From Thermoanaerobaculia bacterium (GTDB lineage Bacteria > Acidobacteriota > Thermoanaerobaculia > Multivoradales > Multivoraceae): DNA of 64,000 bases. The notes beneath the pieces are model-generated. The model made no database searches. It was not told the origin of the DNA and saw nothing but the letters and a program-made list of their open reading frames with translations. The position numbers and the translations under genes were made by a program. This document shows, one piece after another, positions 22,134 through 28,445 of this stretch; position 1 is the first letter of the stretch, and each line of letters begins with the position of its first letter. The DNA lies in NCBI GenBank assembly GCA_963664405.1, contig OY761158.1, positions 192,001 to 256,000 on the forward strand, read 5' to 3'.

Positions 22134-22406
22134 TCAAGTCGGGCTAGCCTGGGCGCCGAGCAGGATGTCGAGCTCGCCAATGTCCTCGAGGTCGTAGAGC
22201 TCGTCACAGCCACCGACTCCGCGACCATCGATAAAGATCTGCGGCGTCGTAGTGCGCCCCTCGGCTCTCGCCACCATTTCTTGCAGAAGACCCGGTTTCA
22301 GACTGATATTCCGCTCCTCGAACTCGACCCCTTTGGTCTCCAGGAGTCGTTTCGCCATCCCGCAATAGCCGCAGAAGGAGCTGGTATAGATCTCGACTCG
22401 GGGCAC
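22134..22406 (-). CDS. grxC: Glutaredoxin 3
   Basis: CGYC active site, T.PQIFI, GGCDEL. Confidence 0.92.
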   Translation of the reverse strand: MPRVEIYTSSFCGYCGMAKRLLETKGVEFEERNISLKPGLLQEMVARAEGRTTTPQIFIDGRGVGGCDELYDLEDIGELDILLGAQASPT

Positions 22407-22476
22407 GGCCTATCGAACCAGAAGGTCCGGTGTCGAATTCCGCCACCGGGCGGGCAATTCCTCCCCGACTCTTGGC

Positions 22477-22505
22477 TTGGGCTCTAGAGCTCCACGGTCT
22501 ACAAT
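22477..22505 (+). promoter_or_regulatory. Sigma70-type promoter TTGGGC-N17-TACAAT for the peroxiredoxin
   Basis: 17-bp spacer; upstream of SD AGGAG. Confidence 0.5.
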
Positions 22506-22542
22506 ACTTATTCGAATCGCAACCACCAGCAGGAGAGAGAAA

Positions 22543-23211
<669 letters not shown>

Positions 23212-23217
23212 CGGCGC

Positions 23218-23383
23218 CTAGACCAGCGTTTCCAAAGTTCGTGTGCAATAGCTCGAGGTCATTCTGTTCGCTGGCCAGGCGCGCCGACGCAGGCATATTG
23301 GGCAATATGTCGAGGAGGCGAAACGCCGCCAGCGGACAGAAGGGGCCGAGATATGTGCGCGAACTTTGGAAACGCTGGTCTAG
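23218..23383. mobile_element. MITE-like palindromic element, family A copy 1 (166 bp)
   Basis: 24-bp perfect terminal inverted repeat ctagaccagcgtttccaaagttcg; second copy at 48320-48498. Confidence 0.85.
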
Positions 23384-25564
23384 CTAGAAGCGGTGGCCTC
23401 CGTGGGCTCCATAGAGGAGCTCGAACTGGAGGAACAAGCTCGACTCGTCGCGCTCGAGATGGTCGGCGCGGTCCCAGTTGTACTGGAGGCGGAGCTTCGA
23501 GAACTCACTGGGAAAGAAACTCAGGTTCGGAGAGATGCGAAGACGGAAGGCGCGGAGTGGATCCGCCTCAGCTTCGCCTTCTGCATCCGCCCAATCGAAG
23601 CGCATGCCCGCTACCCAGCGCGTTCTGAAACCCCAGGTCGCTTGTAGGTAGGCTCCCCAGTCCCGAAGAGTCTCGCCGGGAAGAAAGGATCCCTCCAAGG
23701 TCTGTGGAGCGGCCTCGTAGGCTCTCGTCATCAGCTCGGCCTGGATGGTGTAGAAGGGCCAGCCGCGCTCGTTCACCGGTGGCCTCCACTTCCCGTAGAA
23801 GTCGATGCCGGTGATGTTCGTGCGCTCCTCTAGCCCAGTGGCGTTGGGGCCGGTCACGTGGGAGGCACCGGTCAAGATGGTGAAGCTGTCGGTAACATCG
23901 ACTGAGGTCGAGAAGCGCCCCAAGTAGAGGAGATCCCCGGCTGTGCGCACGTCCCGATCGAGGAGCACTCTGCCGGCAAACTCCTCACCCGGCACAGAAC
24001 GGAAGGACGTCGCGGTCTCCCCATTCGAGTTTTGCACCCCGAAGCTCACCTCGGCGAAGAAGGAAGTCGGGAGCAACCAGTTGAGCTGACCGCCGGGGCC
24101 CCGCAGGCCGTCCGGGCCCAGGAAGCGAGAGCTCACGACCGGTTGGTCCACAAAGCTCCAGGCGTGCGGATGCTGGACATTCAAGCGTCCGAAAGAAGAG
24201 AAGAAGGTGCCTGCCTTCACTTGCAGGCCCGCCGGTAGGGCGAGAGTCGTCAGGTAGGCTTCCTCGACTTCGACAACACTCTCGCCCTCTTCGTCGATCT
24301 GGAAGACGATGAAGGCGTCTCCGCGAATGTAAGGGTCCACGGCTCCAGAGAGGGCGAGCTCGAGATTCTGCACTGTGAAACCACGATTCTTGGGATCGTG
24401 AGCGCCGAGCTCGAGCAGGCGCAGATCGGACTCGCGAGCCGACGAAGCGCCGGCCGAAAAGAGGCCATCGAGGGAAATATCGATGAGCCGTAGGCCGGTC
24501 GATGGGGGGGCCGGCGCCTCTGCCATCGGCTCTTGTTGCTCTCCGGGCTCAGCTTCCTCGGCCAACTGCTCGAGCTCGGCTTCGAGGGCGGTGATGCGCT
24601 CCTGAGCCTGCCGGACGACCTCCTTCAACTTGGCGAGCTCGTCTGCCAGCGCCTCTACGCCGGACGCCTCGTCCTCAGGCTCATCTGCGCGTGCCGGTGC
24701 GTAGGCAACCATGCCGAGGGCAACGAACATGACGGCCGCGCCGCGGAAGTGGCGAAGTCCCGGAAGCAAGCGCCCCACCAGGGCGGCGACCAGAGCGCCA
24801 AGACTGAGAACGGCGACGATCGAAGCCCCCGACGGGAAGTCATAGACATAGGAGAGGTGCAACCCGAAAAAGCTTCCGGCTAGGGCGACACCCAGCGCGA
24901 CGAACACCAAAGGGCCGGTTCGCCGGGTCACGAAGACCGCGGCGACAGGGGGAATGATCAGAAAGGCAAAGACCGGAATGACCCCACCGGCACGAATGGC
25001 GAAGACGATTGCAAACGCCAGCAGCACGTAGAACACGAGGTTCATCATCTGGTCCGCCGGGCCCAATGCCTCTCCGCTGCCCTTGCGGTAGGTCAGGGCG
25101 AAAAAGCGCCGCCCGAGCGCGACGTGAAGAAGGGCAACGGCCCCAAATACCATCAGCATCGACCTCAGCTCTCCGCGGTCGATCGCGAGGACATTGCCGA
25201 AGAGCACGTCCTGGATATCCGCTTCGCCGTGCGGAGTCTTGGCGATGAAGAGAACGGTGAGCGCCGAGGAAGCGGCGTAAAAGATGCCGATGATCGCCTC
25301 GAGTCGGAGCCTCTTGTCACTGACGCGAAGCATCGAGAAGACGGCGGCAGCGATCAGCGTGAGAGTCATCGAAGAGAGCACCGGATCCAGGCCGGCGTAG
25401 GTCGCGTAAGCCACACCCAGCGACGAGATCTGGCCCAAAGCCAGGTCCACGAAGACGATGCCTCGCCTCACGACGTGCACTCCTAGATAGGCGAGGAGGA
25501 GCCCCAGCGCCGTACAGGCGACGAGGGCGTTGACCATGAAAGAGAGCTGGAGCCACTCAAACAT
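23384..25564 (-). CDS. Fusion of a ZnuB/MntB-like (ABC-3) metal permease, an internal signal peptide and an outer-membrane beta-barrel-like domain
   Basis: SD GGAGG before ATG 25564; hydrophobic permease (LGVHVVRRGIVFVDLALGQ, LFGNVL, GVIPVFAFLIIP); 'RHFRG-AAVMFVALGMVAYAPARA/D'; coiled coil; beta-rich region ending GAHGGHRF. Confidence 0.85.
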   Translation of the reverse strand: MFEWLQLSFMVNALVACTALGLLLAYLGVHVVRRGIVFVDLALGQISSLGVAYATYAGLDPVLSSMTLTLIAAAVFSMLRVSDKRLRLEAIIGIFYAASSALTVLFIAKTPHGEADIQDVLFGNVLAIDRGELRSMLMVFGAVALLHVALGRRFFALTYRKGSGEALGPADQMMNLVFYVLLAFAIVFAIRAGGVIPVFAFLIIPPVAAVFVTRRTGPLVFVALGVALAGSFFGLHLSYVYDFPSGASIVAVLSLGALVAALVGRLLPGLRHFRGAAVMFVALGMVAYAPARADEPEDEASGVEALADELAKLKEVVRQAQERITALEAELEQLAEEAEPGEQQEPMAEAPAPPSTGLRLIDISLDGLFSAGASSARESDLRLLELGAHDPKNRGFTVQNLELALSGAVDPYIRGDAFIVFQIDEEGESVVEVEEAYLTTLALPAGLQVKAGTFFSSFGRLNVQHPHAWSFVDQPVVSSRFLGPDGLRGPGGQLNWLLPTSFFAEVSFGVQNSNGETATSFRSVPGEEFAGRVLLDRDVRTAGDLLYLGRFSTSVDVTDSFTILTGASHVTGPNATGLEERTNITGIDFYGKWRPPVNERGWPFYTIQAELMTRAYEAAPQTLEGSFLPGETLRDWGAYLQATWGFRTRWVAGMRFDWADAEGEAEADPLRAFRLRISPNLSFFPSEFSKLRLQYNWDRADHLERDESSLFLQFELLYGAHGGHRF

Positions 25565-25578
25565 CGGCGACCTCCGAC

Positions 25579-26514
25579 TCACTCCCCGCTCGCTGCTCTG
25601 CGCAGCAGATCGAGGTTGGTATCGAACAGTGCGATGTAGTCGTCGGCTCCTTCGACTCCTCCCACGGACTGGGCCAATGTGACCAAGGCCGCCCCTGTCT
25701 CTCTAGCGACCAGGCTCGCCGTCTTCTTGTTGTAGAAGGCGGTCATCAGGATCACATCGACCCCGCGGGCTTTCATCGTCTCGGCGAGCCCGGCGATGTA
25801 ACGACCCGACGGAGCGATTCCCGGCTTCGGTTCGACGAAGGCGACCACTTCGAACCCGAACCGCTGCTCGAGATACGGCCACGAGTCGTGATACGCGACA
25901 ACCGGGAGACCCCGCAGAGACGCGGCTTCGCCCGCCCATCTTTCGATGGCGGTGTCCAACTTCTCGATAAAGGCCGCTAGATTCCTCGCATAGACCTCGG
26001 CGCCACCCGGGTCGACCCGTTCGAGACCTTCGGCGATGTTCCGAGCGATGATGCTCCCGTTGCCGGGATCCAGCCAGTAGTGAGGATTGCCGAAGGGGTG
26101 GATGTCCCCCATGCTGCGGTCTGCGTTGGATGGGATCTGAAGCTTGGAGATGCCGACCGAGGCATCGACATAGCCACTGGCACCCTTCTGGATCTTTCCG
26201 TTCCTGGAGTTGGTCAGCAGGCTCGGCGCCCATCCCTGCTCGAGCTCCATGCCAACTAGGACGAAGAGGTCGGCCCTCTGGAGCTTGACCAGATAGGAAG
26301 GTTTCCCGTCGACAAAGTGAGGGTCCTGATAACCCTTGGCGATGGAGCTCACCTTGCCTCTGGAGCCGACAATGCCTTCAGCGATCGAGGCGAGATCTGT
26401 CGTCGTCGTAACGATGTTGAGCTGAGCCGTGGCGGCGTGAGCCGCCGAAAGAAGGGCGGCCGCCAGAGAAAGAGTCTGGAGCCATCGGCACCGCGGAGTC
26501 GAAAGAATGCGCAT
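25579..26514 (-). CDS. Metal ABC substrate-binding protein (ZnuA/TroA family)
   Basis: Signal peptide; DPH, NPHYWLDP, YHDSW, VEPKPGI.PS; SD GGAGG. Confidence 0.93.
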   Translation of the reverse strand: MRILSTPRCRWLQTLSLAAALLSAAHAATAQLNIVTTTTDLASIAEGIVGSRGKVSSIAKGYQDPHFVDGKPSYLVKLQRADLFVLVGMELEQGWAPSLLTNSRNGKIQKGASGYVDASVGISKLQIPSNADRSMGDIHPFGNPHYWLDPGNGSIIARNIAEGLERVDPGGAEVYARNLAAFIEKLDTAIERWAGEAASLRGLPVVAYHDSWPYLEQRFGFEVVAFVEPKPGIAPSGRYIAGLAETMKARGVDVILMTAFYNKKTASLVARETGAALVTLAQSVGGVEGADDYIALFDTNLDLLRRAASGE

Positions 26515-26667
26515 GACCACCTCCTGCATGATCCGAGGCTGACGAGGCCTCGACGCCTAGGCGTCGGCGCAAGACCTCATCGCATGATCGGGTCGACGAA
26601 GCTCGCCCCACCGCCAGCGGAGAGACGAGGATCACTTCGAAGCCGACTCAGGCAGGCGGTGCGCGTC
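26515..26667 (-). promoter_or_regulatory. Predicted translational attenuator: RAPP/stop codons pair with the downstream SD and enclose two hairpins
   Basis: mRNA CACCGCCUGCCUGA pairs with UCAUGCAGGAGGUG (12 of 14); inner hairpins at 26597-26639 and 26541-26581. Confidence 0.65.
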
Positions 26668-27034
26668 CGGTGGGGCCGTCGATCGAAAGCGCGCTGCGGA
26701 GCGGCCCTGTGTAGCGCCCAAGCGGTTCTGATCTCGGCGGAAGGTCGCCGGCGCCGCGATTTGCAACAGGAGTACCCAGCCGGCGTACCATCGCCAGGCA
26801 GCCAGGACAAGCTTCGTGCTGCTCCACCGTAACCGGCACCAGATCTGGCTGCTCGGCGTGGTTGGAGTGCTTGGCGTCGGCAGTCAGGTCGTTGACGTGC
26901 TCGTGCCGCGCCAGGCTGCGTTCCCCCGCGTCATGATCGTGAACGACATCCTTGCCGAGGGCGACAACGGTCAGTGCAGCGAGCGCCGCGATGGCAAAGA
27001 CGCGCGAAAGTAGATCTTCTTCAGAGCGAAGCAT
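26648..27034 (-). CDS. DUF2946/CruR-like metal-sensing leader protein with a RAPP arrest motif
   Basis: N-terminal hydrophobic segment, His-rich (HDH, HEH, HSNH), CPGC, C-terminus GPTGRAPPA*; SD AAGGAG upstream. Confidence 0.8.
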   Translation of the reverse strand: MLRSEEDLLSRVFAIAALAALTVVALGKDVVHDHDAGERSLARHEHVNDLTADAKHSNHAEQPDLVPVTVEQHEACPGCLAMVRRLGTPVANRGAGDLPPRSEPLGRYTGPLRSALSIDGPTGRAPPA

Positions 27035-27100
27035 GGATCTCCCGTGATCCCTCCTTAGCCTATCAGGCCTCTTGTGCTTCCGGTTGCGCCCCCTCAAGCC

Positions 27101-27493
27101 CTATCCGCCGGGACTCCGCGACCAGGTCCTTATCGGCCCTTGTGGCCCATTGAGGATCAAGCTCGCTCCGCGCACACGAGTGCCAAGCGACGCCCCCGCC
27201 TCGATCCGCAATTGGCCGTTCGCGAGCCTCTCTACCTCGCTCCATACCCGACCGGCCGCGAAATCGGTCTCTGCCAGGCCGGCGTATCTAGCGTCGGCCG
27301 CGAGCGCCGCCCGGGTGTGGGCGACAGCGCTGTCGACCATCATCTCGAGGCGCACCCGCGCGGCCTCTCGGCGCTGATCGCGCATGCGTATTTGCAGCTC
27401 GAGAACGCTCAGCGACAGCGATATGCCGAGCAGGAAGAGGACGAAGATGGCCAAGAGCAGGGCATGTCCCTCCTCCCCCTTCCTTCGCCGCAT
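27101..27493 (-). CDS. PilX/GspK-like pilin
   Basis: Basic leader, G/HALLLAIF hydrophobic helix without Glu5; TGATG coupling. Confidence 0.65.
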   Translation of the reverse strand: MRRRKGEEGHALLLAIFVLFLLGISLSLSVLELQIRMRDQRREAARVRLEMMVDSAVAHTRAALAADARYAGLAETDFAAGRVWSEVERLANGQLRIEAGASLGTRVRGASLILNGPQGPIRTWSRSPGG

Positions 27494-28047
27494 CAAGGCG
27501 CCCCCCGCCGCAGCCAGACGCGAAGTCTCGACTCTCGCACCGTGGTGGTTGCCGTCATTCCACTCGGGACCCCGACGCGCGGGGCTCCGACGGCGCGGCT
27601 GAAGCGGACGCGAAAGGCGATGTCGACCAGATTTTCGCCGAGACGGCGCCAGCGCCACGAGACGACATCGCCCAGAATGCGCTGGCGGCTGATCTCCGCT
27701 CCATCGACGGAGACCAGGATGCGATAGAGCTCGTTACCCATCGAGAGCCATACGATCCGTTCTCCCTCGTCACCGACTACCGTCAGTCGACCGGCTCGCC
27801 AACCCGGCAACAACGCCGGAACTGCCGCCGCGCCTTCGAGGTCATGGCGCAGTCGAGCCAACGCATAGCGCGGCAGCGGGTTGCGTAGCTCGGCCTGAAC
27901 GCGAGAGATCTGGATCTGCGATTCCAGCAGCAGGCCGGTGGCTAGGCTCATGACCACCATCATCACCGCGGTCGACACCAGCAGTTCAACGACCGTGAAG
28001 CCGGCTTCAGCTAGTCGCCGCCGGCGTCCGAGCACGACTACTTGCAC
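27493..28047 (-). CDS. Type IV pilin / pseudopilin (PilW/GspJ-like)
   Basis: Prepilin site AG/FTVVELLV; start uncertain. Confidence 0.75.
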   Translation of the reverse strand: MQVVVLGRRRRLAEAGFTVVELLVSTAVMMVVMSLATGLLLESQIQISRVQAELRNPLPRYALARLRHDLEGAAAVPALLPGWRAGRLTVVGDEGERIVWLSMGNELYRILVSVDGAEISRQRILGDVVSWRWRRLGENLVDIAFRVRFSRAVGAPRVGVPSGMTATTTVRESRLRVWLRRGAP

Positions 28048-28445
28048 GAGGCTCCCTGTTGCCAGATCTGGGTGTCGAGGCTGATGTCGTGCCATCCGCT
28101 TCTCTTGGCGCGCGATCGCGCCTGGACCCGTACCTGGCAGAGACCGGGTAGCTCACTTGCCCTGACCACCAGATTCATGCTGTGTAGCTCGCCGGTAGGC
28201 TCCACCCAGGCGAGTGCCGTATTCACCGGGCCACTCACAAGGGGGTGGGCTCCAGCTCGTAGGCTCTCCACCACCGCATGCGCATTTCTCAGCAGCTCGG
28301 CCTCGGCATCCAGGCCTCGACCGACGGCTTGAACCCGCCAGTGGATGCCCCCTCCTAGGAGCAGAGCGACGGCGACCACACTCGCGGCCACCAAGACTTC
28401 CAACAGAGTGAAGCCCCGCTCGGTGCTGCCGGCGACCTTTGCCAA
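28038..28445 (-). CDS. Type IV pilin / pseudopilin (PilV/GspI-like)
   Basis: Prepilin site RG/FTLLEVLVA. Confidence 0.8.
   Translation of the reverse strand: MAKVAGSTERGFTLLEVLVAASVVAVALLLGGGIHWRVQAVGRGLDAEAELLRNAHAVVESLRAGAHPLVSGPVNTALAWVEPTGELHSMNLVVRASELPGLCQVRVQARSRAKRSGWHDISLDTQIWQQGASCK

Follow-up and report, generated by a model that had tools for sequence, protein, structure and literature searches.

In the 64,000-nucleotide stretch of DNA analysed here (the window), a small minus-strand ORF probably encodes an exported arrest leader of the CruR/CutF-like type, which would control the ZnuA-type/permease-barrel operon behind it through a helix at the Shine-Dalgarno sequence (SD) that is operated by a stalled ribosome. 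The probability of this reading is put at roughly 0.6. Computation supplies the helix, its place within the ribosome footprint, the leader's homology and architecture, and the finding that pairing between the leader tail and the SD recurs in related loci. The features on which the argument rests are the following:

26648..27034, minus strand: leader ORF of 128 amino acids plus stop (MLRSEE...SALSIDGPTGRAPPA, then the stop codon), from the translation, with GGGAG 4 nt before the ATG
26954..27004, minus strand: codons of a putative N-terminal hydrophobic export segment (R-VFAIAALAALTVVALG), read from the translation and the family alignment
26897..26941, minus strand: His-rich stretch (HDHD...HEH), from alignments, with H34 nearly invariant in the family
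26798..26809, minus strand: CPGC (CxxC) codons, 44 residues ahead of the Arg of RAPP
26648..26667, minus strand: anti-SD, formed by the codons Gly-Arg-Ala-Pro-Pro-Ala-stop, pairing with 26509-26526 in the minimum free energy (MFE) structure
26592..26647, minus strand: intergenic hairpin 1 (core 26629-26602), from the MFE, pair probabilities mostly 0.8-1.0
26533..26591, minus strand: intergenic hairpin 2 (core 26583-26538), core pair probabilities 0.93-1.0
26512..26526, minus strand: ribosome-binding site (RBS) of the binding-protein gene, from the sequence (GGAGG 26524-26520, spacer UGGUC, AUG 26514-26512)
25579..26514, minus strand: gene for a ZnuA-type periplasmic metal-binding protein of 311 amino acids (Pfam PF01297, E 4.1e-54)
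23384..25582, minus strand: gene for an ABC-3 permease that continues in the same frame into a coiled-coil and beta-barrel-like C-terminal half (Pfam ABC-3, E 1e-38, residues 13-268)

In the proposed mechanism, when no ribosome occupies the leader tail, the stretch GGA CGC GCA CCG CCU GCC UGA would pair both with the SD and with the opening bases of the binding-protein gene, and the resulting helix would close over the two intergenic hairpins, blocking initiation of the binding protein. Arrest at RAPP would leave a ribosome, its P site holding Pro126 and its A site Pro127, on top of the anti-SD, making the RBS 133 nt downstream accessible and allowing translation of the uptake genes. Once the arrest is released, termination would follow two codons later, the ribosome would leave, and the helix would re-form. 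By analogy with CruR, release would occur when metal binds the HxH/CxxC part of the nascent chain, which would just have emerged, about 44 residues behind the peptidyl-transferase centre. The arrest, its release by metal, the metal concerned and the polarity of the switch are what we infer here; release by metal and polarity are borrowed from CruR (PMC9426467), and the polarity of CutF is the opposite (PMC9973294). The CruR polarity, where metal relieves the arrest and uptake is turned off, would be the logical one at this locus because the genes under control are uptake genes.

The anti-SD lies at the extreme end of the leader. On the minus strand, the codons are Arg at 26665-26663, Ala at 26662-26660, Pro at 26659-26657 (CCG), Pro at 26656-26654 (CCU), Ala at 26653-26651 and UGA at 26650-26648. 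The MFE register pairs CCGCCU (26659-26654) with 26517-26522, bulges G26653, pairs CCUG (26652-26649) with 26523-26526, and pairs GCGC (26664-26661) with 26509-26512, taking in the G of the AUG. Pair probabilities between the anti-SD and 26509-26526 are 0.95-0.98, the lone exception being A26660-U26516 (0.53), and the helix is found in both the MFE and the centroid structure. Folding six windows of 176-591 nt gives every SD base a probability of 0.96-1.00 of pairing with 26648-26667, which bears out the central proposal of an earlier sequence-only reading, namely that the RAPP-Ala-stop codons are themselves the partner of the SD. An Rfam search of 26300-27300 on both strands returned no matches at E<=1.

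Other structural details of that reading fared unequally. The pairing that it drew between 26661-26648 and 26531-26518, at 12 of 14 positions, is Watson-Crick as read, with G.A and C.U as the mismatches, and this register, together with the GAC/GUC extension beside the AUG, is returned when the isolated tail and SD segments are submitted to RNAduplex (-20.9 kcal/mol). A helix at the SD is likewise present in every full-context fold, but the favoured register is shifted by 2-3 nt from the one proposed. The inner extension (UCG..GCU with AGC..CGG) could form on paper, but the MFE does not contain it and uses its bases to close the two hairpins. Both of the enclosed hairpins that had been described are present in the MFE, at 26647-26592 and 26591-26533, and at least six of their pairs are G.U and would read A.C on the opposite strand, as had been pointed out (26625-26606, 26623-26608 and 26643-26596 in hairpin 1; 26579-26543, 26574-26548 and 26571-26551 in hairpin 2). 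In the X8-run marine-metagenome contig of a relative, C replaces U26654, a synonymous change of the second Pro codon from CCU to CCC; the spacer of this contig is replaced by 182 other letters, and the SD side lies outside the view.

The position of the anti-SD relative to a stalled ribosome was evaluated with an assumed footprint of 26671-26644 and Pro126 in the P site. This footprint covers the whole anti-SD, with the pairing partners 26649-26664 inside it. Folding with and without the footprint held unpaired, the check that the sequence-only reading had put forward, lowers the cost of opening the RBS by 5.6-5.9 kcal/mol (from 14.5 to 8.6 or from 13.6 to 8.0 kcal/mol, in two set-ups), and the probability that SD bases are paired is 0.97-1.00 in the free RNA and 0.42-0.97 with the stalled footprint. 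The idea that a stalled ribosome frees the start of the binding-protein gene is upheld as far as the covered anti-SD and the reduced opening cost are concerned, but it is tempered by a partial re-pairing of the SD with CCCC at 26675-26672 (P about 0.53) and by a mock upstream footprint that was neutral in one set-up (+0.5) and lowered the cost in the other (13.6 to 9.1). In silico, the locus would thus count as an SD-sequestration switch, given a paired SD whose partner lies within the assumed footprint of the arrested ribosome.

The closest characterised relative of the leader is CruR (Bp2923) of Bordetella pertussis, a copper-responsive uORF of the DUF2946 family. According to the available portions of the CruR report (PMC9426467), CruR resembles the leader in being the small first gene of a metal-uptake operon, in having an N-terminal export segment (putative here), a CxxC motif and RAPP within a few residues of the C-terminus, in the spacing between CxxC and RAPP (45 in CruR, 44 here), and in the long spacer before the next gene; both RAPP and CxxC are needed for its function. 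CruR differs in that it works through Rho-dependent termination, and the main text, in those same portions, makes no mention of SD pairing. The gene downstream of CruR encodes a TonB-dependent copper transporter, whereas the one here encodes a component of a ZnuA-type ABC importer, and CruR is a DUF2946 protein whereas the window's leader is not scored by PF11162.

These properties of CruR suggest the alternative that survives best, although it is an unlikely one, whereby the arrest mainly shields the transcript from Rho, release allows Rho to terminate within the 133-nt spacer, and the SD helix is secondary or additive. Besides the Rho route of CruR and its likewise long spacer (PMC9426467, in the parts available), this explanation draws on ApcA, ApdA and ApdP, for which the accessible part of PMC7897499 reports that no SD-sequestering hairpin was found, and on the 11 of 26 clusters of related loci examined here that lack tail-SD pairing in the ensemble. 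It is opposed by the structure of the spacer, which is almost fully paired and contains two stable hairpins, with pair probabilities mostly 0.8-1.0. Base-paired RNA is poorly suited to Rho loading at rut sites, so the spacer is likely to be a poor loading site. The pairing of the SD itself (P 0.97-1.00) also argues against the Rho route. No terminator-like site turned up in 26400-27400, where a consensus scan for promoters and terminators gave 0 and 0, although such a scan is silent on Rho.

For the preferred reading, with its stall-operated SD helix, the nearest mechanistic parallel is CutF-cutO of Rhodobacter capsulatus. In the sections available of PMC9973294 and 10.1101/2025.02.05.636593, CutF is described as exported, with a Cys motif and a C-terminal proline stall motif, and an RNA helix that shields the SD of the next gene is opened by the stalled ribosome. 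The differences lie in the details, again as given in part of PMC9973294: the anti-SD of CutF belongs to an intergenic stem-loop (CTTC), whereas here it is formed by the arrest and stop codons themselves; the CutF motifs are PPP and CxxxC, whereas those of the leader are RAPP and CxxC; and in CutF copper induces stalling, the target being a detoxifying oxidase. Unlike in CutF, the helix here spans 133 nt and encloses two hairpins. The known routes for RAPP-type and related leaders differ, with Rho for CruR and an intergenic stem-loop for CutF, and an anti-SD made of the stall codons would add another design.

The sequence-only reading had instead likened the locus to SecM and MifM, an analogy that is apt for the RNA switch, but CruR and CutF are closer relatives. 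For SecM-secA, MifM-yidC2 and uDF_RQH-secDF2, a stalled ribosome on an exported leader likewise disrupts an SD-sequestering helix (PMC10987492; PMC7897499, both in the parts available). These leaders, as presented in the same sources, monitor Sec or YidC, regulate localisation factors and carry other arrest sequences, and the signal that they sense is pulling force, where the signal here is presumably metal. The gene downstream of the window's leader is ZnuA-type rather than a component of Sec or YidC, and in model terms the leader would work like the SecM/MifM class without being a member of it.

A C-terminal R-A/G-P-P in small exported proteins is shared with ApdA, ApdP, ApcA and a set from Streptomyces lividans, whose downstream genes differ from those in the window, as far as the available text of PMC7897499, PMC10951233 and PMC12992588 covers them. 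Metal sensing has already been proposed for two Cys/His leaders upstream of copper genes (PMC12992588, in part), and the portion of that report on RAPP/RGPP leaders before metal genes makes no mention of SD sequences or stem-loops.

The strength of the helix is not what sets it apart. The fold energy of 26490-26700 is ordinary (z -0.91), with 39 of 200 shuffles folding as well; at the same fixed distance, a 27-nt window pairs as well (<= -20.9) in 2.2% of this genome's 1064 SD-bearing starts, and some window between -260 and -60 reaches -20.9 in 26% of them. Because equal pairing is this common, the helix is notable for its place: its strength is ordinary for a GC-rich genome, and what stands out is its position on the arrest and stop codons and its recurrence in the family. 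Within the locus, of 92 other windows along the leader ORF a single one matches the tail in its pairing with the SD window. Between loci, the duplex of the leader tail with its own SD reaches -20.9, whereas the SD windows of 30 other loci yield -12.0 +/- 3.9 with the same tail (rank 2 of 31 for the native partner). The native tail codons are no better here than synonymous recodings (z -0.30; 36% of 400 pair as well), and the pairing at this locus can thus be attributed largely to the amino acids and the GGAGG.

Such numbers lend something to a second, improbable alternative, in which the complementarity is incidental, CCN CCN and GC-rich Ala/Arg codons simply matching GGAGG, the helix is a by-product, and control is exerted in another way, transcriptionally for instance. 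Its points in favour are the recodings that pair as well, the equally strong partners found within 200 nt upstream of about a quarter of the genome's SD-bearing starts, and the unremarkable fold z-score. Within the window, it is countered by the SD-side flanks, which fit the tail far better than do the SD windows of other loci; the remaining evidence against it comes from the family.

Since the nucleotide sequences of the family are too diverged to align, pairing statistics over 31 loci in 26 clusters were used instead of a covariance model or RNAalifold. The leader tail prefers its own SD over the SD of other clusters in 22 of the 26 clusters (z<0; Wilcoxon p 1.2e-4), and the SD window prefers the tail over other windows of its own leader in 22 of 26 as well (p 2.2e-5); the preference for the tail over windows of the downstream coding sequence is weaker (18 of 26, p 0.005). 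In 20 of 26 clusters the native tail pairs better than its synonymous recodings (p 3.3e-4), and nine loci stand at <=0.05. CCU is rare in the background (8.1% of 790 Pro codons), but 10 of the 26 clusters use it for the first Pro of RxPP, an enrichment of about fivefold (p 1.9e-5), and seven for the second (p 0.004). The own-SD preference, the advantage of native codons and the excess of CCU all argue against incidental complementarity, although CCU could have been favoured because it is decoded slowly during the arrest rather than because it pairs.

Fifteen of the 26 clusters show pairing of the SD core with the tail zone at P>=0.5 when the full ensemble is considered. The helix is absent (P 0.00) from L027 and L028, which are two of the three other ZnuA-linked loci and the closest ones, and such pairing predictions are fragile, as evidenced by L052 (0.99) and L063 (0.00), whose tail and SD windows are identical. 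When a stalled footprint of 28 nt on the first Pro is imposed, the RBS opening energy changes by -2.8 kcal/mol on average, versus -0.7 kcal/mol for a mock placed 30 nt upstream (p 0.0018), and the stalled footprint produces a drop of at least 2 kcal/mol in 16 of 26 clusters, the mock in 5 of 26.

The leader has the architecture of a metal-sensing arrest peptide. A hydrophobic stretch of 16 residues follows Arg11, as judged by eye from the translation, and an equivalent block occupies the same place in all 26 aligned leader representatives. CPGC corresponds to residues 76-79 and RAPP, which ends one residue short of the C-terminus, to residues 124-127, leaving 44 residues between them. C76, C79, R124, P126 and P127 are invariant in the 26 aligned leaders and two His residues are nearly so, while the spacer from CxxC to the Arg is 42-45 residues across the 31 loci analysed. 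For DUF2946 proteins, the available portions of PMC9426467 give a CxxC-RAPP spacer of 45 +/- 1-2 and report that five added residues impair copper control. RAPP has been reported to be ribosome-arresting (PMC10951233 and PMC12992588, each seen in part).

Relatives are few in protein collections. In a set of 5.8 billion proteins, two were matched at E<=0.01, the identical 128-residue protein and a homologue (P0005) with 66% identity and the same C-terminus. Among 1.84 billion representatives, three matches were obtained at E<=0.001, these being the protein itself, a partial match to a 2241-residue protein, and one new full-length relative (P0007, E 9.5e-5) that ends in ...GRAPPLT; the G-RAPP C-terminus is thereby kept in both P0005 and P0007. 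A six-frame search of 61 relatives with the single leader protein gave no significant homologue (best non-self E 0.011), and a search for related loci in genome and metagenome contigs yielded no new locus. With profiles, six-frame searches recovered the leader in 5 of 300 genomes of the order, 8 of 401 in a sample of the phylum, and 39 of 401 in a sample of the class. The ORF takes the form CxxC, 42-45 residues, R-[AGS]-P-P, 1-7 residues and stop in 32 of 42 loci scanned. Two spurious pattern matches (RPPP in L039 and RRPP in L050) were removed before the statistics, as were L053, whose leader is followed by 462 nt of available sequence without an intact gene, and L055, with no gene within 383 nt.

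The relationship to DUF2946 is a distant one. Pfam, PF11162 included, gives no match even at E<=10 for P0004, P0005 and P0007, and a six-frame search of the window's own genome with PF11162 does not match the leader locus. In the class, PF11162 exceeds its cut-off of 23.7 bits in 6 of 401 genomes by six-frame search, and in the genomes seen with both kinds of match the two sit at different places. The PF11162-passing ORFs nonetheless have the same architecture as the leader family, and hhalign aligns the 26 leader representatives with six DUF2946 ORFs of the same class, which pass or reach the Pfam cut-off, at a probability of 95.3% and E 2.2e-8 over 57 columns spanning HxH...CxxC. The shared architecture and spacing, together with this hhalign link, mark the leader as a divergent relative of CruR, CutF and similar metal-sensing arrest leaders (DUF2946). 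That the ORF is instead no arrest leader at all, being untranslated or an ordinary small exported metal-binding protein with a non-stalling RAPP, would fit the rarity of the family in protein collections (two and three matches in the searches above) but is highly improbable, given that the ORF and its architecture are kept in 39 of 401 sampled class genomes with C, C, R, P and P invariant, and that proteomes strongly avoid RAPP and RGPP other than close to the C-termini of small exported proteins, as stated in the accessible part of PMC12992588.

In the window, the leader is the first of a series of metal genes on the same strand, followed by the ZnuA-type gene and then the ABC-3 permease gene, with the leader stop and the GGAGG separated by the 133-nt spacer. 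The start of the binding-protein gene is placed at ATG 26514, which has GGAGG 5 nt before it and is directly followed by a signal-peptide-like N-terminus (read from the translation), and not at ATG 26529, which lies inside the helix and was rejected for having no SD. The permease start and the binding-protein stop overlap by 4 nt. Further along, the permease-barrel protein has a weak match to TonB_dep_Rec_b-barrel (Pfam, E 0.0032), and a signal-peptide-like segment (...MFVALGMVAYAPARA/DEPE) is found at the junction of its two parts. Permease and barrel are likewise in a single frame in L028 (1532-3021), and in L025, L037 and others the barrel protein has a gene of its own, placed immediately after a leader. 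The ORFs scanned in 22204-23384 and 26515-28100, next to the binding-protein and permease genes, showed no ABC ATPase gene. After the operon, and on the opposite strand, comes an AhpC/1-Cys peroxiredoxin gene (22477-23211); the neighbours listed for CruR homologues include AhpC_TSA genes (PMC9426467, in part).

Across the 31 loci, the gene behind the leader is ZnuA in four, a CarboxypepD_reg/Plug TonB-dependent receptor in 15, an outer-membrane efflux protein (OEP) in two, DUF4198 in one, and without a Pfam match in nine; these are genes of metal-traffic types. Several of the nine have a coiled-coil/barrel-like N-terminus, and one is the ORF of L046 (1918-2205), a receptor-like ORF that is cut to 96 amino acids and for this reason may be a pseudogene. 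The tail-SD duplex of L046 is the strongest of the set, at -24.2 kcal/mol (CCUCCUGA with UCAGGAGG). In the genome of L045, two paralogous leaders of opposite orientation lie within 3.3 kb of each other, one ahead of a TonB-dependent receptor and the other ahead of a DUF4198 protein. In L056 and L059, the leader stands ahead of the OEP gene and not of an uptake gene, and there the CutF polarity, with metal inducing the stall, would be more sensible, the downstream gene being of efflux type.

A broader and more tentative proposal, rather less probable than the reading of this single locus, is that in a Holophagae-class branch of the CruR/CutF leaders the codons from RxPP to the stop have been selected, even synonymously, as an anti-SD, and that in the window this arrangement is coupled to a ZnuABC-type importer. 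If so, one stretch of 20 nt would encode the stall, the stop and the RNA switch, and the use of arrest codons as the anti-SD would be a minimal and easily testable design. That such switches could originate more than once may be explained by the fact that Pro-Pro codons, especially CCU CCN, are complementary to GGAGG. The locus would also be the first case of an ABC metal importer under the control of an arrest peptide, one that might sense zinc or manganese and not copper; through the link to ZnuA, metal sensing by nascent chains would reach beyond copper receptors and efflux systems to a major class of metal importers.

RAPP codons acting as an anti-SD were not found in print, nor was an arrest peptide associated with ZnuA, although the supplementary neighbour tables of PMC9973294 and PMC9426467 may list ZnuA. 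The literature found to join DUF2946 and Shine-Dalgarno consists of the CutF work and a review only. DUF2946 does appear alongside ZnuA in PMC4176598, where the DUF2946 passage, in the part of the source available, is a gene table.

The start of the leader has some features of its own. AAGGAGG is found 15 nt before the leader AUG, and between the two is a small minus-strand hairpin (GGAUC 27050-27046 with GAUCC 27039-27035) whose loop holds the GGGAG, 4 nt ahead of the AUG. Two overlapping ORFs (27101-28095, minus strand) immediately precede the leader, one of which has a weak pilin-like N-terminal methylation motif (PF07963, E 4.7e-4, below the cut-off). The gap from the stop of the upstream ORF to the leader ATG is only 66 nt, and the leader may therefore be co-transcribed with these ORFs.
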